The position numbers were made by a program, and so were the translations under genes. A stretch of DNA of 64,000 nt from Escherichia phage Bf23. The notes under the pieces are model-generated. The model saw only the letters and a program-made list of their open reading frames with translations. It ran no database searches and was not told the origin of the DNA. Below, in pieces: positions 9,992 through 54,214 of this stretch; within the stretch, counting starts at the first letter, position 1; each line of letters begins with the position of its first letter. The stretch lies in sequence record OR083247.1. One strand, written 5' to 3'.

Positions 9992-10468
9992 TCACATCTC
10001 AGCAAGTTCTTGCTCAGTAATAACTGTATTACATAGTGCATCTACAGCTTCATTACCACTAATTCCTGAGTGCCCTTTTACCTTAATAAAAGTAGGATTA
10101 GTATTGTGGAAGTTAATGTATTGCTGAGTTAATTTAAATGCTTCTTGCCAAAGCTCTAGATTAAGAGGGATTTCACCATCTGCTTTCTTCCAGCCTTTCC
10201 TCTGCCAAGAAAACATCCAACTTTCCATACCATTTTTGCAATAAGCAGAATCAGTATAGATAACAATTGGTCTATTATCTTTTTTAACTGACCAACGTAG
10301 AGCCTCTACAATAGCCGTGAGTTCCATCTCATTATTTGTAGTTTTAGGACTATATCCAGATTTAGAACCTAGACGATCGTCGTTATCATCATAGACAATA
10401 AAACCCCAAGCACCTAAACCCGGATTGCCTTTACATGCACCATCTGTATATATATGAAATGTACTCAT
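9992..10468 (-). CDS. rnh: ribonuclease H
   Basis: IYTDGACKGNPG..TNNEMEL..YTDS..G..W..W..KGH clearly aligns with RNase HI. Confidence 0.85.
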   Translation of the reverse strand: MSTFHIYTDGACKGNPGLGAWGFIVYDDNDDRLGSKSGYSPKTTNNEMELTAIVEALRWSVKKDNRPIVIYTDSAYCKNGMESWMFSWQRKGWKKADGEIPLNLELWQEAFKLTQQYINFHNTNPTFIKVKGHSGISGNEAVDALCNTVITEQELAEM

Positions 10469-44973: not shown

Positions 44974-44978
44974 TAGAA

Positions 44979-45016
44979 AAACCCCAGTGGACAAAATCCA
45001 CTGGGGTTTCTTTTTA
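44979..45016. terminator. bidirectional rho-independent terminator between convergent early and late units
   Basis: Hairpin AAACCCCAGTGGA..TCCACTGGGGTTT flanked by A- and T-runs. Confidence 0.7.
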
Positions 45017-45019
45017 TAT

Positions 45020-48000
45020 TTAACTATTTTTCATAGTAGTCAACAAGTGCTCTACTACAGTTTTCAAATCTTCCACATCTTTCTCAAGTTTATTAATACG
45101 TTCGGTTTTCTCCTCATCCCGTTGTGCTAATACTTTTATAGCACATAGCGCGTCTAGTAAAAGAACGTTATTATCTAGAACGATCCTTTCCTTCGTATCA
45201 GTATACCCTTGAACAACCCCATCATCATCAACAATGGGTTCCCCACATGGTTCATATGTGTGCTTGACGTATGTAGGATCTATCTCCTCAATCTGTTGAG
45301 CAATGACCCCTCTGCGAGTACGTTTTTTCTCATCATCCTTAAATACAAAAGTAACAAGATCCATAGCCTTAATATTTTCTATGGAACGAATACCATCATA
45401 TTCTTCTATGTTAGTCTTGTAGTTAATGTCAGATGTTCCACTTAATGCAAGTGTACCCGCCGCTGTAGGAAAGTTAATGATCCATTGTCCAGTATTGTTA
45501 GCATTATTACGACGTGCTACATATAATGCACCATCGGGAGATACTTCAAATAAGTTACGTGTACCAACTGTCGCATCACCTTTAGCAGTAGTAGTAATAG
45601 CAATGCCACTATATCTTGTAGTAGTTACATCTACAGAACCTTTAGACGTCCATCCCTGCTCAAACCTAGTATTTAGAGTAAAGTAAGAACTTACCCCCAA
45701 TTTAAGCTCGTTCTGAGTACGACTATAGTTGAATAGTTCAGCTCCAGCAGTGCTATCTCTATTAAGTCTAAACCCACCACCATCTGCTACAAACATGTAA
45801 GTAGAGTTATCTGCGTCAGACTCCACAAATGATAGCGTTGGATTACCAGACTTAAGAGTAAGCGGATTGGCAGCACTACATAGAATATCTCCAAGAAAAG
45901 TATTACTTCCTGTGAATCTATTATCCAGCTCTAGCATCGCAGCACTTTTCCAAGGAACATCCGTTTTTGAGGTTGTAGGCTGATTAGTTGTTAGAAATCT
46001 GCTGTAGAGTCTTCCAGCACCATCAATCCAGCTCTGCATAATGCGGTTTTCAGCATAACTAGACTGAAAACCACCACCGTTGCTAGGTGCCCAGGAAGGG
46101 TCCCCCGCGTTATCACTGATGAAACCATCTCGTGCATCCGTAGGAATTTTAGGGGCTAATGTAGCAGTAATAAGTTTTAACCATTCACCTACAGTACCCC
46201 CTTCAATACTTCTAGCAAAGAATTTTGAGTTACGTCCGGCAAATTGGGTTGCGTATGTGCCGCTAAATCCAACATGAAAACCACCATAAGTTATGCTGCT
46301 TTCAGGTGTGTTAAGATTCCCGGCAATAGCTTTAAATTTGTTTACGCCGTCTGACTGCTGAGCGTTCCAGTCCTGGTCTGAATACGTTCCCAATCCGTTT
46401 GGTGGCTGTATAATTCCGTTTGCTTGTACAACCTGGTAAGAGTCACCATACTTATTGCGGTATGTATCGCTGCAATAAAATCCTGTTGCACCCGATGTAA
46501 AATCAAGTAAATTTCCGTATATACCTAGACCACCGTCAATGCCGTCACTTGCATCTGAGATACCCCATTTATAAACAGGAGCATCACTTGCAGTTGCTGG
46601 CGACCAATCTGCTGTAGGAATGGTGATAGTAGATCCTACTGTTGCAGCAAGTCTAATTGGGAAAGCGTCACCGCGAACATAGATCGCGTTATGTGGATAG
46701 TATGCCTTGTCAGTACCACGCACGCAAAGTATAGCTACCTCACCAGAATCATAGCAATGGTAGTGCCCAAAAGCTCCCTGACCCATATCAGACCAACCAG
46801 CATCACGAATCCACATATGTATCATGTTACAGTTTGGCTCCTGTGATCCACTAAGAGATCGTGTACGCATTGATACTTCTACAAATGCATCGCCATTCCA
46901 TCCTGCCGGATGACTAATAATTACTGGGTAATACTTTTTAGCTTCAGCTCCTGCGGGGGCATTATAGTCATACCAACGAGATAATCCAGTATTAGGAATT
47001 AATAGACTATCTTTTGTTTGTTGCAATTTTGCTTTGGGAACGGATAGAAGAGCAGCCTGTACATTTGGTAAATCAATCTGGTCATTTTTATAGCTATAAC
47101 CTATTACGTATTCACCATTATACCCGTCTCCATCTTTTTGTATACGCCAGTTACCACCATCAAAAATGAAGTTGTAGTAAGGGGCATTAGCTGGGCGATC
47201 AGTTTCATTGAATTGGATCGTAGGATGCTGGCTTGTCAGAGTTAGTGGGTTACTTACATTAGATCTTAATTCAGCACTAGAACCAATAAATTTTCCATTA
47301 GTGGCTACGTTGCCATCTTCGTCCATTCCAAGATACTGATTTTTATCGCCAGTTTGTAGATGCAAGGTAGCCCATCCGCGGTTATCTCCTCGAAATTCTG
47401 GGTATAAGCGAAGCCTCGTTCTTTGTGTACCGGCACCATTATTTAGAATGCACTGTAATATACCACCAGCCACCTGATTTGCATCGGAAGATCTTACAAG
47501 ATTAAGAGCGTAGAATTGTGGAGTACTTGTCCAATCATATGACTGAAAAATCTTCCACTCGGTCCACTCCCAGCCAGTTGTCGAGGATTGCTTGATATAT
47601 TGGCGCATATAGAACGAACCATTAATGGAGTTGTAAGGAAAGTATAGCTGAGTACCTCCTTGCGGGCCATTAGCGTTATTCTGCATTACAAGAAGTGCAC
47701 CAGCACTAGTTACAGGGAAGTGGTTCGCCGACGTAGCACCAGCATTGGCACCTTGATGATAAAAACCTGCCCTAGTACCATCAAGCGTGTTAAGATCAGT
47801 ACCATTAAGATCTGCTTTTTGGTCTCTCATTGCATTAAGATTGGTTAACGCAGAATTATAGTCACGTGCACCAGTACCACCCTGCTCTATTGCTAATGGC
47901 TTCCAATTTTGATCAGCTGGACTGTAATATCCCCATCTTCCACTAGCATCAAGCTGTAAATAACACCCTGTACTTTTATCGTCAGATGAAAATATAACTG

Positions 48001-48817
48001 TTCTTTCGCTGGAGCTATGACTGAATCTCGAAACCTCATCTTTACGTGCATGACGTGTCCACTGTGGGCCTAGATTGCTTGCCCAACGATAGGTGTATAA
48101 TGAGCGACTACTCCATCCCTGAAAAATACCAGTATAAGAAGGAGAGCCATCATTAATAGATATAAAACCTGTTAAGTAGGCTTCTCCCGATGCAATAGAA
48201 GGCCACCCAGGCACACCCTCACGAATACGCATAAAACCAATATACGCAGAAGGATTACCGGAAATATCCGGGCAATCACGAACTGAATTACCAAGGCCTA
48301 TAGAAGCTTTCATACCAGAAGCTACATTTTCAGCTTTAGTAGCAGATGCCGCCGCATTAGTTTCTGAGGTCTTAGCATTGGTTTCTGATGCTTTAGCAGC
48401 ATTAGCACTGTTAGCAGCAGCAGTTTTACTATTATTAGCATTAGTTTCTGAAGTTTTAGCAGCCGTCTCACTAGCTTTTGCGTTAGTCTCAGAAGTCTTA
48501 GCAGCTTTAGCACTATTAGCAGAAGCAGTAGCAGAAGAAGCAGACTGAGTTGCAGACTGCTGGGAAGATGCCGCAGAAATTTCTGCTTCATTCTCAGAAT
48601 CTTTGGCATTTAGCTCTGACTGTTTTGCATTAATTTCAGATTGTTTAGCTGCTGCTGCAGAAGTCTTAGAGGATTCTATTGCAGTAGTTAGCTCACCAGC
48701 AGTGATAGAACTAATAGAATTAGAAAGCACAACTGTATACTTAGGATATTTACTTGCAGTTATACTATTCTGGTCCATAGTGACCATTTGCTGTAGAATT
48801 ATTTTAGTTATAGCCAT
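45020..48817 (-). CDS. ltf: L-shaped tail fibre protein (pb1-like, 1265 aa) with C-terminal intramolecular chaperone domain
   Basis: N-terminal Ala/Ser/Thr-rich repeats, long beta-rich shaft, C-terminal chaperone-like segment (DINYKTNIEEYDG..GVIAQQIEEIDPTYV). Confidence 0.8.
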   Translation of the reverse strand: MAITKIILQQMVTMDQNSITASKYPKYTVVLSNSISSITAGELTTAIESSKTSAAAAKQSEINAKQSELNAKDSENEAEISAASSQQSATQSASSATASANSAKAAKTSETNAKASETAAKTSETNANNSKTAAANSANAAKASETNAKTSETNAAASATKAENVASGMKASIGLGNSVRDCPDISGNPSAYIGFMRIREGVPGWPSIASGEAYLTGFISINDGSPSYTGIFQGWSSRSLYTYRWASNLGPQWTRHARKDEVSRFSHSSSERTVIFSSDDKSTGCYLQLDASGRWGYYSPADQNWKPLAIEQGGTGARDYNSALTNLNAMRDQKADLNGTDLNTLDGTRAGFYHQGANAGATSANHFPVTSAGALLVMQNNANGPQGGTQLYFPYNSINGSFYMRQYIKQSSTTGWEWTEWKIFQSYDWTSTPQFYALNLVRSSDANQVAGGILQCILNNGAGTQRTRLRLYPEFRGDNRGWATLHLQTGDKNQYLGMDEDGNVATNGKFIGSSAELRSNVSNPLTLTSQHPTIQFNETDRPANAPYYNFIFDGGNWRIQKDGDGYNGEYVIGYSYKNDQIDLPNVQAALLSVPKAKLQQTKDSLLIPNTGLSRWYDYNAPAGAEAKKYYPVIISHPAGWNGDAFVEVSMRTRSLSGSQEPNCNMIHMWIRDAGWSDMGQGAFGHYHCYDSGEVAILCVRGTDKAYYPHNAIYVRGDAFPIRLAATVGSTITIPTADWSPATASDAPVYKWGISDASDGIDGGLGIYGNLLDFTSGATGFYCSDTYRNKYGDSYQVVQANGIIQPPNGLGTYSDQDWNAQQSDGVNKFKAIAGNLNTPESSITYGGFHVGFSGTYATQFAGRNSKFFARSIEGGTVGEWLKLITATLAPKIPTDARDGFISDNAGDPSWAPSNGGGFQSSYAENRIMQSWIDGAGRLYSRFLTTNQPTTSKTDVPWKSAAMLELDNRFTGSNTFLGDILCSAANPLTLKSGNPTLSFVESDADNSTYMFVADGGGFRLNRDSTAGAELFNYSRTQNELKLGVSSYFTLNTRFEQGWTSKGSVDVTTTRYSGIAITTTAKGDATVGTRNLFEVSPDGALYVARRNNANNTGQWIINFPTAAGTLALSGTSDINYKTNIEEYDGIRSIENIKAMDLVTFVFKDDEKKRTRRGVIAQQIEEIDPTYVKHTYEPCGEPIVDDDGVVQGYTDTKERIVLDNNVLLLDALCAIKVLAQRDEEKTERINKLEKDVEDLKTVVEHLLTTMKNS
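48300..48720 (-). repeat. in-frame coding repeats within the ltf N-terminal region
   Basis: Repeated AK(T/A)SETNA peptide units from repeated GCAGCAGAAGCAGTAGC-type DNA. Confidence 0.6.
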
Positions 48818-49239
48818 TATTGAGTTACTCCATCACTAATATAAACCTTGCCTTCCATAATACGGAAAGAACTAGCAGCACTACCAACAGCTGTTCTAGT
48901 AATAATTACATCATAGTATCCAGCCAATCTCTGTCTAGGGTTATATCTATCTCTTTCTTTGGATGCTTTGGAAGCAATAGTAGTTACAGCACTAACAGGT
49001 AGACTTATAGAGGCTACTCCTTGTGCAGCATCAACAATAGATGTAGTAAAAGATGCTAAAGTTTCAGCCCCGTCTTCTAAGCTACTTTTAATACTTCCTC
49101 TAAGAGAAAAGCCAGTAAGATCTACCGGCTTAGATGTAGCAGGATAAACACTATCATCTACATCCATAAATTGCATAAGTAAACCATAAGGTACGTTCTC
49201 ATCTACTACTAAATCAATAACTCTATTTTCTGTACTCAT
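48817..49239 (-). CDS. tail collar protein (p132-like, 140 aa)
   Basis: Size and position between ltf and pb4. Confidence 0.5.
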
Positions 49240-49243
49240 TATT

Positions 49244-51364
49244 TTACCTTATATGGATATACCCGTTTTGCAGGTCTATCTTCATTTTGTAAGATCCCTC
49301 TGGATTAGAGGATAGTGCTGCTGCACGATCATATATAATATTTACACCAATTTGTGATAAGAAAGCATTGTTAGCAACAATTTTACTGGCAGTTACCGTA
49401 CCATTAACTATCATATCTCCATGTAAAACCATTGCAGGGCTAGTCCATGCTGAACCATTCCACTGCCTAGTAAACGCTGTTCCTGGTGCCCCACTTTTAT
49501 ACTCAGTTAATACATCATATTTAACAGGACCAGTACCAAAGTTAGATGTAAAAAACGCATTAGCCTGAGAATCGTTCCATGCCGTTAAATTAGCAATAGC
49601 AAGAGAGTACATTCCAGGACCACGTTGTCCATTATCACCTGGTCGTCCATCTGCTCCTGGTTTACCATCAGCTCCTGGTTTACCATCCGCTCCGGGTCTA
49701 CCATCAACACCTTCTGTACCACTCCATTGAACTACGTCTGACCAGCTAGTTCCAGATACTAATTGATTAGTAACAGGATCTAAAGTACCTGTAGAACAGT
49801 AAATATTTTGAGTATTAGATGTTCTATTGGGTGGAGTTTTTGACCAGCCTGAAGGCGGATATGCAGGGCTTGTAGGCTTAGCAGGTAGTGAGGTTCCTAG
49901 AGTATAGATAAATACTGTTTGCTTACCTTGTATACCTGTTGCTATATCGATGTCACCGTTAGGTGTACCAATTACAACCCCACTAGAGATTCTTAATGTA
50001 TCACCGTCATAACGAATGTACTGGGTAGCATTGCCAATATCCAGTTTTGGTTTAGCAGTAGCATTATCCATACCCATCCAGATACCAGATCTTGTATCAC
50101 CCCAAGTTTTGCCTTGAGTATAAATTGCTGGGTTATCTTGACCGGTTAAATTAGTCATGACAAAGTTAGCAGCGTTAATAGTTTTAGTTATTACACTTCC
50201 ATCAACGTTAACTATCTTTTTAATAGGGTCAAAGGATATTGGAGCTTTTCCTTCCGCATCTAGAAGACCTATATTAATAGCACCAGTAGCAGCATCTATC
50301 AGGAAAGTTTGTTTCCAAGTAGAACCATCTTTGATCTTACCTTTAATATACGCGTAGTTTACCTCAATACCAGTTTCATTTACAAAACTATTATCTAGTG
50401 GAGTATCCTCCTTTAGTATAAAAGTTTGTACAGCAGAGTCGGTAATATCCTGCTTACTTGGCCCCCAGGCAATAGACGACACTTTAAATTTATGCTCTAC
50501 TTTCCACGGGAATGATATAATTGTTGCTGATTGGGCAGCACCCACGTTAATTTTTTGTGCTTTAGTCCATCCAGTTCTTGCAAACTCTGCTGAATCTATA
50601 TAGGATAGAACAAACTCACGAACATTAGCCCCTGCACCTCTATTCCAATCCCACTGAACACGCAAATCATAGCGTTCTTTACCGTCGGCTATACGTGCTG
50701 CTTTAAACTCAATATTAGTAGGTGCGGTAGGAGGAACAAAATTATAGTTAACTTCAAAGACAGTAGGATACTCATAGTATCCAGATGAATCAATAGTAAC
50801 ACCGTCTGGTAGGCTTATTTGACCAGAAATTCTTACTTTATAGAATCCGATTGGCACGCCCCCAAACATAATAGTTGGCATTAGTGCACCAACGTAATAT
50901 TTAACCCACGGATTATTAGCATTAGAATTGTTTTTTAACTCTATAGTACAATAATCAGCTTCTCCAGTAGTATCGATAAAAACTATGGGTGCTCCAACAC
51001 CAACATCTACTGGTTCTGACTCACATCGAGCGCCAGTGATTCTGGGTGCTGATTTCATTTTAAGAGTTTGTTTGTCAGATAAATTAATACCTATCTGAGC
51101 ATTAAGTAGTTCAGAGTCTATTATAGAATCATAAAATGCACCCTGAACTTCATAAGTTGTTGTAGGTTTTAGGTTATTAATAGTTACAGAGAAGGTATCA
51201 ACTCCAGTAAAATCTCTACGAGTAACGTTGCTACCTTCTTTAAGCCAAAAAGATCTGCCTATAACGTCATAATCAGAATAGATAGAATGCTGGATATACG
51301 CCAACGTATATCCAGTTAAGACGCTATTTAGGACCATTTTAGCTGGTGCATTATTTGAAATCAT
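49244..51364 (-). CDS. baseplate/central fibre protein (pb4-like, 706 aa) with collagen-like G-X-Y stretch
   Basis: [30 protein letters not shown] segment; position in the tail module. Confidence 0.6.
49618..49712 (-). repeat. collagen-like Gly-X-Y repeat coding region inside the pb4-like gene
   Basis: Ten consecutive G-X-Y triplets in translation. Confidence 0.6.
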
Positions 51365-54214
51365 TTAAATAGTAGCCCAACCAACAGATTGCTCACCATT
51401 TTCCCCTTCTGCTCTAATCCTAAATCGTAGTTTACGATTAATTCCTAAAGCACCAGAGTTTAATAGTGCAAAATCCGCCTTATTATATGTTAATAGATAG
51501 TCATAAGTACAGGCATCCTCTATCCTAATACTACGAAGCATTCTATCCTGAGAATCATGTATTTCTAGAGTATAATAAATTTCTGGAATTATTTCTTCCT
51601 CAGGTATCTTATCCCAAGCAAGTTTCACGTCTGGTCCAACAAATTCAGTCACGTCTCCAGAAGCTGTATTAGTTACTCTAAAGTTACTAACTACACTTAA
51701 GTTTCTAGCAGAATTAAGATCCACGGAAAGAGTAACAGGAGAACTACGTCTACCATTAATATCAACGGCACGTAATTCAAAAATAGCTAAACCAGCAGGC
51801 TCACCTATAATCTCCTGAATCATCCTTTCATTAGGATTATTCTCTAATTGCTGAATTATGTAAGGATCTACATGACCTGAATGAGCTATAGAGTAATATA
51901 CTACGTTATTAGTAAAACTAGGTAGCCAAGATAGTTCCCCATTTTTACCTATAGCACCTATCGTACCACCAGGAGTTGGTGTATACTTAAAGTCTCTAGG
52001 AGGAAGAACATTATTACTAATATCTGGAATATCATTACCACTATTATCTACTTGATCAGAGTTGATAAATACATCTTCACCATACTCTTGTAGTGTTAAG
52101 TTAATCCTACCATCACGAGTATTTTCTACTTCATCTACTAGGAAGAACTTGTCTTTCCACCCATAACGCTCATAAGTAAACGCAATCGGATCATTTGGCT
52201 CTATACCAATGAATTTATAAGGTACTGAGAAGCTAAGCGTACGTGAGTATCTAGATTTTTTAAGCTCCCTATCTGCATAACTACGAGCAGTGTAGTAGTT
52301 AGTAATATTTGCAAAAGATAGCTGAAGTTTTTTATCCAAGCCCTTGTCTTGTTCTTTAAACTTAGAGTTATAGAATGTAATAGAGTTTGTTTTCCAACTT
52401 AGCGCAGGGTCTACTAGGGATGCTTGTACTGAGTTAAACTTATTTCTACCAGTAGTATCAGATAAGTCTAAGTCCCCATAAGTATCTAGAAAACTTATAT
52501 TCAAAGGAGTTGTAGAGTGCTTCTCTACAGTTATTCTATACTCACCAGATAAGTTATTTATAGCTCCTCCAAAAGAATCCAGTACTCCTTGAACATTTTT
52601 AAATACTGATTCGGAGGTATCTAATATAGTGTTTAACTGAACTACTTGGCGATGTTCAGAAATAGAATCACTCCAACCAACATATCTCCAATATGGTTGC
52701 CAGCTAATCTGATAAGATTCATCAATTATATCTAGAATTTTTGCTTCTGATATAATCTTTTGTAGGGGGAACTGATCTAGAGTTATATTAGCTCCATAAC
52801 GTTCAGAGGTTAGATAGTCCATAAGCTGCCAGATACCGTTAAGGCTAGTTTTATCAGCTTTAACAGACCCATCAGAACTATATACTTTGACTTTCTTACC
52901 TTGTACTTCAGCACTAATTTCTGGAATTTCAGTTCTATTCTCATTAATAGTAAATCTAACTACAGCGTAGGCTGTGTCTAAGAGCTTATAACGAGAATCC
53001 CAGTATTCAGGTCCATTGCCGTTTTGATTCTGTAAATAGAAACCTTTTCTTTTAGCAATATCCACTAATACTTGAGCTGCTGTCTGGTCTGGTTTGCCAT
53101 GAAAGGTCCATATTCTTATGTCACCATTACCATCATTATACTTATACTCCTGACCATGAACAGAAGGTTGAGAAGTACTTGTACCCGCAGCTAGTCTATG
53201 CATTGTATCACCCACTAGTTTCTTACGACCGAAGCAGGTTCTAGTATTGGAATCCGTTTCATCGAAACAGATCATTGGGCTGTCCCCAATATAGAAATCC
53301 AGGAATCCGTCTATTTCTCCTTCCGAAAAAGCATAGACTACATACACTATATTAGGGTTATTTAGCTCAGTATCTGCAAAAATAGGGATACCAGGAATTT
53401 TCTGAACCCCATATACAACAGGTATAAATTTAGCTGCTAAGTTAAAGTCCAGGTCCACTTCTTTAGTTACAGTCTCATAATACTTTTTAAGACTGTAACT
53501 TCTTGATAGACCAAAGAGCTTCTTCTTGGACTGAAGTTTATAGCGTTCTTCTTTTACTTGATACTTAGCTAAGATAGTGGTACTTTTATTAGAGTGGAAG
53601 AATCCATAGTCTTCTTGATATTCAGGACGTTTAGCACCATTAGAAGGTTGTAATTGTCCATTAACAACTTCAAGTCCTCGGTGGGAAGCATCATCGGTAT
53701 AACGACCATTCACCCTATCAAAGTCATAGAACTGGTTGGAACAGTTCCATGTGATAACAGAAGTTCCTATTCCTGAAGTAGTAACATTATCTTTTATTCC
53801 GCCTCCGGTAATTCTACCACGGAAGAATAATAAAGGGCCGTCTGTACTAGGATCTACTGGAAGAATATTTCCTTCTTCATCAATTATCGCTTGATGTATA
53901 GTAATAGTTCTATCTAAGAAAGATACCCCATTTTGAACTAGTTTTAATACTTCATCTTCTGCTGTACCAGTTATAGTGAAAGATAAACTACCAATAGATA
54001 ATTGACGGTTCTGCTTATGGGAGCTTATACTTTTTACTTTACCTGATCTATATAAGATTCCGCTATAAGTAACATCTCTAAAATAGTCTGTCAGGTAGAT
54101 ATAAGTAGCTGCGGAACCAGATGAACTAGGAAGCTCTAAAGCTATAAGACAAGCTGTTTTTAGCTTGTCATGAGTATTAAGATATGTTTTAGCACTATCG
54201 AGTATCTGCTTCAT
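51365..54214 (-). CDS. baseplate hub protein (pb3-like, 949 aa)
   Basis: Size and position immediately upstream of pb4. Confidence 0.65.
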   Translation of the reverse strand: MKQILDSAKTYLNTHDKLKTACLIALELPSSSGSAATYIYLTDYFRDVTYSGILYRSGKVKSISSHKQNRQLSIGSLSFTITGTAEDEVLKLVQNGVSFLDRTITIHQAIIDEEGNILPVDPSTDGPLLFFRGRITGGGIKDNVTTSGIGTSVITWNCSNQFYDFDRVNGRYTDDASHRGLEVVNGQLQPSNGAKRPEYQEDYGFFHSNKSTTILAKYQVKEERYKLQSKKKLFGLSRSYSLKKYYETVTKEVDLDFNLAAKFIPVVYGVQKIPGIPIFADTELNNPNIVYVVYAFSEGEIDGFLDFYIGDSPMICFDETDSNTRTCFGRKKLVGDTMHRLAAGTSTSQPSVHGQEYKYNDGNGDIRIWTFHGKPDQTAAQVLVDIAKRKGFYLQNQNGNGPEYWDSRYKLLDTAYAVVRFTINENRTEIPEISAEVQGKKVKVYSSDGSVKADKTSLNGIWQLMDYLTSERYGANITLDQFPLQKIISEAKILDIIDESYQISWQPYWRYVGWSDSISEHRQVVQLNTILDTSESVFKNVQGVLDSFGGAINNLSGEYRITVEKHSTTPLNISFLDTYGDLDLSDTTGRNKFNSVQASLVDPALSWKTNSITFYNSKFKEQDKGLDKKLQLSFANITNYYTARSYADRELKKSRYSRTLSFSVPYKFIGIEPNDPIAFTYERYGWKDKFFLVDEVENTRDGRINLTLQEYGEDVFINSDQVDNSGNDIPDISNNVLPPRDFKYTPTPGGTIGAIGKNGELSWLPSFTNNVVYYSIAHSGHVDPYIIQQLENNPNERMIQEIIGEPAGLAIFELRAVDINGRRSSPVTLSVDLNSARNLSVVSNFRVTNTASGDVTEFVGPDVKLAWDKIPEEEIIPEIYYTLEIHDSQDRMLRSIRIEDACTYDYLLTYNKADFALLNSGALGINRKLRFRIRAEGENGEQSVGWATI

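Follow-up and report, generated by a model that had tools for sequence, protein, structure and literature searches.

What structural part do the tandem repeats of a T5-like tail tip play, and would a change in their copy number alter the hosts that the phage can infect? The locus that raises these questions lies in a window of 64,000 nucleotides (nt; the whole stretch of DNA analysed here) from Escherichia phage BF23, where four consecutive minus-strand genes—as given by the list of open reading frames (ORFs)—span positions 45020–54214. Together they are the tail-tip adsorption module of this T5-like phage: ltf, which encodes the L-shaped tail fibre protein (LTF), and the genes for the LtfC/p132 collar, for pb4 and for pb3. 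The genes themselves are already known, being annotated in the published genome (OR083247.1), with homologues from phages T5 and DT57C that have been solved structurally. An initial annotation of the window had placed Ala/Ser/Thr repeat arrays in both fibre and baseplate proteins; this stands for LTF but does not extend further, the collar protein having no repeat array and pb4 none of the Ala/Ser/Thr type. Taking the tail-tip module as a whole, we consider it very probable that each of its repeats acts as a structural spacer: the heptads of LTF as a rod, and the Gly-X-Y triplets of pb4 as a tether.

The heptad array of LTF

At its N-terminal end, LTF can be placed against a known structure: residues 4–140 align by phmmer with residues 5–138 of DT57C LtfA (PDB 8hqz_d; domain expectation value (E) 1.2e-28). 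The first 100 amino acids (aa) are 96–100% identical to those of other Tequintavirus LTFs, and the gene lies directly downstream of ltfC/p132. In DT57C LtfA, β-strands preceding T40 augment the sheets of LtfC, and from T40 onwards a long helix trimerises to give a three-helix coiled coil that projects from the collar (PMC10713586). The equivalent of T40 in BF23 is T39; by analogy, LTF would trimerise and anchor itself in the LtfC/p132 collar through residues 1–38.

Just beyond this point begins an array of 18 heptads that is both uninterrupted and free of stutters, in which position a is taken by Ala 13 times and by Ser four times, and position d by Ser 16 times. Counting Ala at a and Ser at d gives a score of 29 out of 36, whereas 20,000 shuffles of these residues averaged 8.7 and never exceeded 18. 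Tandem AK(T/A)SETNA repeats had been described here before; they are real in the DNA as well as in the protein, but the unit is a seven-residue heptad, AK(T/A)SET(N/A)—the eighth letter being the Ala of the following unit—and five canonical copies are found at aa 106–126 and 141–154. In the DNA, Tandem Repeats Finder (TRF) detects 21- and 42-nt periods at 48354–48505, and the spacings of direct repeats across the array are mostly 21, 42 or 63 nt. Ala, Ser and Thr make up 60% of the array, which contains neither Pro nor Gly.

What would be looked for in a trimerising coiled coil downstream of the anchor is, at the level of sequence, all present: the 18 heptads, the outcome of the shuffle test, and insertions and deletions of whole heptads among relatives (see below). 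Residues ~39–168 are hence predicted to continue the helix seen in DT57C LtfA as a three-stranded, trimeric α-helical coiled coil with a core of small residues, forming the proximal rod of the L-shaped fibre; at 1.5 Å for each of about 130 residues, this rod would measure ~19 nm. Two points weigh against such a prediction: the DT57C coiled coil has been solved only for about the first 10–15 helical residues, everything beyond being heptad pattern, and coiled coils with Ala/Ser cores are weak. The segment might instead be a low-complexity spacer, disordered or β-structured, with no coiled coil at all; its composition and the near absence of large hydrophobics from the core positions would suit this, as would a resolved helix in DT57C that covers the first few turns only. 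We nevertheless find such a spacer very improbable indeed, given the strict a/d periodicity across all 18 heptads, the direct continuity of an array lacking Pro and Gly with the resolved three-helix bundle, and array lengths that differ always by whole heptads.

The array also harbours a Leu-rich ORF of 95 aa (…LLLLLLLLLIVLKLLRLL…) at 48322–48609, likewise on the minus strand. We rejected it as an overlapping gene: lying in a different frame and wholly inside the repeat array, it looks like the repeat codons read out of frame.

Length variation was followed in 18 T5-like loci, fetched with the collar protein, together with four annotated Tequintavirus records. The four closest LTFs (Kenya-K44, LmqsSP1, PS3-1 and SCF) are 96–100% identical to that of BF23 over the first 100 aa and carry exactly 49 extra residues—seven heptads—inside the array. 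The SSITA anchor and the CPDISGNPS domain are 146 aa apart in BF23, 195 aa apart in five phages and 286 aa apart in another; in all seven proteins this distance equals 6 modulo 7, the relatives differing from BF23 by exactly seven or 20 heptads (+49 or +140 aa). A simple a/d rule counts ~19 heptads in BF23 and 22, 26, 39 and 50 in other T5-like phages. These anchor distances and the a/d rule were used in place of a rule that ended the array at the first Pro, Trp, Phe, Tyr, Cys or His, which failed on Tyr and His within arrays of the DT57C type; a homologue search with LTF aa 1–330 was likewise unsuitable for counting heptads in T5-like phages, returning mostly partial E. coli prophage side tail fibres (Stf) of <580 aa.

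Judged by these comparisons, the LTF array is a length-variable spacer with a conserved register; the register is kept in every length variant, as a coiled coil requires. Since the 21-nt units resemble one another, unequal recombination or slippage could add or remove whole heptads, and each such step would shift the length of the rod by about 1 nm with its register unbroken.

The Gly-X-Y run of pb4 and the length of both arrays

All four pb4 domains known to Pfam—Fn3-I, Fn3-II, Fn3-III and PB4_spike (PF24169, PF24170, PF24171 and PF24168)—are found in the BF23 protein far above their cut-offs, and phmmer aligns it end to end with T5 pb4 (7zlv) at 1484 bits and ~96% identity. An AlphaFold2 (AF2) model of its aa 340–706 retrieves by Foldseek only T5 and DT57C pb4 from the PDB (8hre and 7zn2; E 1e-42 to 1e-48). 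The sole insertion or deletion between the BF23 and T5 proteins amounts to 18 aa and falls within a run of Gly-X-Y triplets. Ten consecutive triplets (49618–49712) had been reported for this run, which is real but longer, comprising 12 (Table 1); in 2000 shuffles of pb4 the longest run was five, with a mean of 2.4.

At the DNA level the run has a period of 18 nt, by TRF as by direct repeats. Its flanks are constant, GTEGVD at one end and GQRGPG at the other, and hexapeptide units have been gained or lost between them: T5 has a single G(K/R)PGAD unit, K44 and an SP01-like locus have two, SE11-like and NBSal005-like loci three, BF23 and SCF four, and LmqsSP1 and PS3-1 five. The whole run spans 6–14 triplets among close Tequintaviruses, whilst across 70 homologue clusters the longest run comprises 3–16 triplets with a mode of five, seven of the 70 being without a run of at least three; in homologues of 685–716 aa it begins at about residue 540–553. 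The exact 706-aa pb4 of BF23 is absent from a collection of 15 billion proteins that does contain the LTF of this phage, the nearest pb4 clusters being proteins of 694 aa with eight triplets and 95–96% identity. On these comparisons, the segment—‘linker 2’ in the T5 nomenclature—behaves as an in-frame, 18-nt variable-number tandem repeat (VNTR).

The T5 structures indicate where such a repeat would sit. In T5 pb4, two small decoration domains (d1 and d2) are inserted between strands 15 and 16 of the spike in each subunit, joined by ‘relatively long linkers’, mobile and invisible before receptor binding; the legend to Figure 4 gives linker 2 as residues 548–566 and domain 2 as 567–618, numbers that are identical in the preprint (PMC10038345). 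Residues 549–566 of T5 are exactly its six triplets. In the pre-infection state (7zlv_h) 527 residues were modelled, compared with 669–671 in 7zn2, which fits a decoration insert that is mobile and unseen before receptor binding. Our AF2 model of BF23 pb4 aa 340–706 has a mean predicted local distance difference test (pLDDT) score of 76, and the run appears as coil (pLDDT ~40) with confident domains on both sides, d2 (model residues 246–300) consisting of a strand, a helix and two strands.

By analogy with T5 and in agreement with this model, the run is probably a single-chain tether in each subunit, located outside the β-prism, rather than a collagen triple helix. It would link the two decoration domains looped out of the β-helix spike between strands 15 and 16, with copy number setting the length of the tether—36 residues in BF23 compared with 18 in T5—and the chain remaining single and extended. 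Against this must be set that the T5 legend contains typographical errors (in d1 and l3, with d1 given the same range as l2), and that a triple helix, should it form, could not be displayed by an AF2 monomer.

A genuine collagen triple helix within the pb4 trimer, serving as a rigid rod element of the central fibre, is the obvious competing idea. The protein is indeed a trimer, the 12 triplets are uninterrupted, four of them having Pro at Y, Pfam Collagen (E 1.3e-4), the PHROG family ‘collagen like minor tail’ and NCBIfam SclB all match weakly, and giant pb4 orthologues of Klebsiella phages have been modelled with collagen segments between their domains (PMC13611949). In T5, however, the homologous segment links decoration domains that lie outside each face of the β-prism (PMC10038345), so that the prism keeps the three copies apart. 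The match to Pfam Collagen (PF01391) reaches 22.1 bits, short of the gathering score of 27.2, that to SclB 18.5 against a threshold of 325, and most homologues have 4–6 triplets at the site of the run. Runs of 4–6 triplets are too short to form a stable collagen triple helix, so the conserved role of the segment cannot depend on one. The low pLDDT of the run points the same way, though a monomer model cannot settle the question. On balance we regard a collagen helix as unlikely; of the label ‘collagen-like’ that the run had been given, the Gly-X-Y periodicity of the sequence survives, but its equivalence to T5 linker 2, the coil of the AF2 model and the Pfam score below cut-off speak against the structure that the label implies.

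Both arrays do vary in length, as the initial annotation had anticipated; its further suggestion, that they are hotspots of host-range change, fares less well. Were the arrays contingency loci, with changes in copy number altering host range, one might point to phages whose flanks are ≥90% identical but whose copy numbers differ, isolated on different hosts (E. coli and several Salmonella serovars). Experimental expansion of the host range of one Tequintavirus has also yielded substitutions clustered in the FNIII and spike decoration domains of pb4 (bioRxiv 10.1101/2024.03.13.584857), implying host-related selection on the module around the linker. Yet what that study reports are substitutions within domains, not changes in repeat number (bioRxiv 10.1101/2024.03.13.584857). 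Moreover, the units of 21 and 18 nt are both multiples of three, which keeps all insertions and deletions in frame and leaves no room for on/off switching by frameshift, and both arrays—one in a shaft, the other in a tether—lie far from the receptor-binding parts of the tail, namely the LTF distal domain and pb5/Hrs. Within our small sample no correlation between copy number and host is apparent, runs of 8, 12 and 14 triplets all occurring in Salmonella phages. Contingency loci are, to our mind, decidedly improbable, and any effect of array length on host range is speculation.

As long a shot is the idea that the expanded pb4 linkers (12–16 triplets, as in BF23, LmqsSP1 and PS3-1) represent a functionally tuned tether. 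If so, tether length could set the reach of decoration domain d1 towards surface glycans, or the clamping of the decoration domains by the FNIII domains as the central fibre bends by ~160° once the receptor is bound; even a short collagen-like helix, assembled from the three linkers, is conceivable. On this reading, adsorption or the triggering of infection would be adjusted by a fast-evolving hexapeptide VNTR.

The C-terminal domain and mosaic shaft of LTF

Self-cleaving chaperones of the S74 family are textbook components of phage fibres. Pfam PF13884 matches LTF aa 1129–1184 with 46.7 bits (cut-off 22; E 3.9e-12), and in an alignment with 24 homologues T1128, S1129, D1130 and K1134 are invariant. 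Within the sequence GTSDINYK, S1129 and K1134 supply the Ser at the first residue of the domain and the Lys five positions downstream (S-x4-K), and hhalign places this stretch on NTSDARLK of T5 pb1, thereby pairing it with T1263, S1264 and K1269. In T5 pb1 cleavage falls between Thr1263 and Ser1264 and is prevented by the substitution S1264A; the serine is activated by Lys1269, and a chaperone that is retained masks receptor binding (PMC4690869). Transferred to BF23, this predicts cleavage at T1128|S1129 (codons at 45431–45436), with K1134 as the general base, and the chaperone would be 137 aa long, compared with 133 aa in T5.

Further matches to the C-terminus were obtained with phmmer, which links it to the C-terminus of DT57C LtfA (E 2.9e-25) and to the ICA domain of MYRF (7dc3; E 0.004). 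The T5 chaperone is built from two helices, a 50 Å hairpin and a coiled-coil helix (PMC4690869); an AF2 monomer of LTF aa 861–1265 presents elements in the same order, with helices at model residues 279–290 and 311–319, a hairpin formed by strands 324–336 and 342–354, and a helix at 358–404.

Several observations temper this picture. The C-terminal model has a pLDDT of 52 and a predicted template modelling (TM) score of 0.23, its last 70 residues scoring pLDDT 60–87, and a Foldseek search of the PDB with this low-confidence model found no chaperone structure; the matches that it did return (T4 gp34 and lectins, at TM scores of 0.1–0.2) were judged meaningless and were not used as evidence. The hhalign comparison with the whole T5 chaperone is not significant (E 0.31), the local alignment of the motif alone being used here, and no LTF residues could be assigned as counterparts of T5 Asp1239 and Arg1250. 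When LTF was searched by phmmer against PDB sequences, T5 pb1 (4UW7/4UW8) was not retrieved, even at E 10 with the C-terminal 226 aa; by sequence, the distal domains of BF23 LTF and T5 pb1 are not detectably homologous.

The proposal of a C-terminal intramolecular chaperone in the initial annotation thus holds at the level of sequence, where membership of the S74 family and the catalytic motif are established by the Pfam match, the invariant T/S/D/K residues and the alignment with the T5 site; the model is only consistent with an S74 chaperone fold, and auto-cleavage in BF23 we infer from T5. The last 137 residues of LTF would nucleate the trimeric distal domain as it folds, and afterwards cut themselves off between T1128 and S1129 by means of the Ser1129/Lys1134 dyad, to leave a mature fibre of ~121 kDa with its receptor-binding tip unmasked.

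Between the array and this putative chaperone, neither Pfam nor NCBIfam finds a domain in LTF aa 169–1128, NCBIfam finding nothing in the whole protein. By analogy with T5 pb1, the distal part is presumed to bind the receptor. LTF aa ~100–330 (~47830–48520) are 55–69% identical to side tail fibres of E. coli lambdoid prophages, and aa 861–1265 (45020–46237) share ~48–71% identity with tail fibre proteins of E. coli prophages; for both segments the best database relatives are lambdoid prophage Stf proteins, carrying PF08400 and/or S74, not T5-like proteins. A third segment, aa ~250–450 (~47470–48070), is only 4–34% identical to the four closest Tequintavirus LTFs and ~100 aa longer, with flanks that are 60–100% identical to the same four proteins. 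Recombination seems to have replaced this part of the fibre shaft, and the pattern of relatives suggests an exchange of modules between virulent T5-like and temperate lambdoid phages. Such mosaicism is ordinary modular exchange among tail fibres.

Layout of the locus and comparison with known systems

Coordinates of the features discussed are collected in Table 1. The identities given earlier to ltf and the pb4-like gene are upheld: besides the pb4 domains and T5 alignment described above, the 1265-aa LTF is identical in sequence to WLW40739.1 of GenBank (‘L-shaped tail fiber protein [Escherichia phage Bf23]’), and PHROG tail fibre families match it as well. The collar protein matches the PHROG family ‘collar tail protein for L-shaped tail fibre attachment’, and the stop codon of its gene overlaps the start of ltf (ATGA). 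The computed masses of LTF, collar, pb4 and pb3 (137.166, 15.023, 76.357 and 107.015 kDa) equal those given for BF23 virion proteins ORF150–153 (Table 1 of PMC10644984). Mass spectrometry of BF23 virions detected all four, LTF being listed at its predicted mass of 137.17 kDa (PMC10644984).

Table 1. Coordinates of the tail-tip genes and of their segments in the BF23 window (approximate boundaries are marked ~)
Feature	Position	Strand	Description	Basis or remark
ltf	45020..48817	-	L-shaped (lateral) tail fibre protein; 1265 aa, 137.17 kDa precursor	ORF
LTF aa 1-38	48704..48817	-	Putative collar-binding segment; β-strands inserting into LtfC ring	DT57C homology
LTF aa 43-168	48314..48691	-	Heptad array, 18 heptads	Register, composition, shuffle test
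Canonical AK(T/A)SET(N/A) heptads	48440-48502 and 48356-48397	-	Five units inside the LTF array	
LTF aa 169-1128	45434..48313	-	β-rich shaft and distal part of mature fibre	Mosaic
LTF aa 1129-1265	45023..45433	-	Predicted intramolecular chaperone / Peptidase_S74; 137 aa, 15.8 kDa	Pfam PF13884
LtfC/p132	48817..49239	-	Collar protein; 140 aa, 15.02 kDa	Pfam LtfC PF23926, 59 bits
pb4	49244..51364	-	Central straight fibre protein; 706 aa, 76.36 kDa	Three FNIII domains, then β-helix spike
pb4 aa ~482-548	49721..49921	-	Linker 1 and decoration domain d1	Approximate; AF2 model residues 143-209, strands, pLDDT 84-93
pb4 aa 549-584	49613..49720	-	12 Gly-X-Y triplets; ‘linker 2’ equivalent between d1 and d2	
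pb4 run, variable core	49631-49702	-	Four 18-nt G(K/R)PGA(D) units	Codon alignment
pb4 aa ~585-639	49448..49612	-	Decoration domain d2 and linker 3	Approximate; T5 d2 567-618 shifted by 18 aa
pb3	51365..54214	-	Baseplate hub protein; 949 aa, 107.0 kDa	Weak Pfam Phage-tail_3 match

Some further features of the window deserve mention. A perfect, G+C-rich hairpin with T-runs on either side, terminator-like on both strands, occupies 44977–45011 within the 46-nt gap that separates the end of ltf (minus strand, 45020) from that of a convergent 87-aa ORF (plus strand, 44973); a terminator scan returns two sites here where 0.3 would be expected, and the hairpin is probably a bidirectional intrinsic terminator. 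In pb3, TRF reports a tandem duplication of 24 nt (2.0 copies, 79% matches) at 52002–52049, around aa 722–738. The match to the collar gene in T5 record IMG 638276020 (10001–10422; 97% identity) is 422 nt long instead of 420, in line with a frameshift error that Ayala et al. noted for the T5 reference (PMC10713586). Over its first 25 kb, and likewise across the replication region, the window is 95–96% identical to T5.

Full-text literature searches on pb4 together with collagen or with spike and tail proteins gave no description of a hexapeptide VNTR in pb4 linker 2 or of a heptad-quantised LTF rod, and to that extent these findings are mildly new, though they matter little beyond annotation. 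The pb4 linker and the LTF rod are natural, tolerated sites at which the length of tether or fibre could be engineered, and the pb4 run serves as a warning to annotators that Gly-X-Y triplets in a trimeric fibre protein do not necessarily make a collagen helix.

Among characterised fibres, a close comparison for the two ends of BF23 LTF is DT57C LtfA (PDB 8HQZ; Ayala et al. 2023, PMC10713586), with which it aligns over the N-terminal 140 aa (E 1e-28) and the C-terminal 180 aa (E 1e-24 to 1e-25), sharing both the collar lasso and a trimerising helix that starts at an ITA motif; DT57C differs in having a branched fibre of LtfA and LtfB, with a heptad array of other composition, where BF23 has a single LTF. 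T5 pb1 occupies the same gene position downstream of the collar gene and has the same N-terminal anchor followed by heptads of the AKTSETN type, but it is 1396 rather than 1265 aa long and is unrelated in sequence over its distal shaft and tip; its chaperone nevertheless opens, as does the C-terminal domain of BF23 LTF, with a TSDxxxK motif at the head of ~135 aa (PDB 4UW7/4UW8; Garcia-Doval et al. 2015, PMC4690869). Lambdoid Stf proteins resemble LTF at aa ~100–330 and 861–1265 and part from it in how they attach: BF23 LTF has a collar anchor of the T5 type, Stf a PF08400 domain that binds a lambda-type tip.

The S74 module is shared more widely, with the chaperone of endosialidase K1F and the MYRF ICA domain (7DC3) having in common with LTF the Pfam family, a Ser...Lys (i, i+5) dyad and a position at the extreme C-terminus of a trimeric fibre; the fibre domain that precedes the chaperone is unrelated, and the similarity to MYRF is marginal (E 0.004). 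For pb4 the closest system is that of T5 (PDB 7ZLV, 7ZN2, 7ZN4 and 7ZQB; Linares et al. 2023, PMC10038345), which has the same four domains and the same site for the run, filled by six triplets (one unit) in a protein of 688 aa as against 12 (four units) in the 706 aa of BF23. With bacterial and phage collagen-like proteins (PF01391; Scl1/Scl2), finally, the pb4 run shares its uninterrupted, Pro-rich Gly-X-Y triplets; it differs from them in being short, in scoring below the Pfam cut-off, and in what appears to be its location—a surface loop between decoration domains, off the axis of the trimer.

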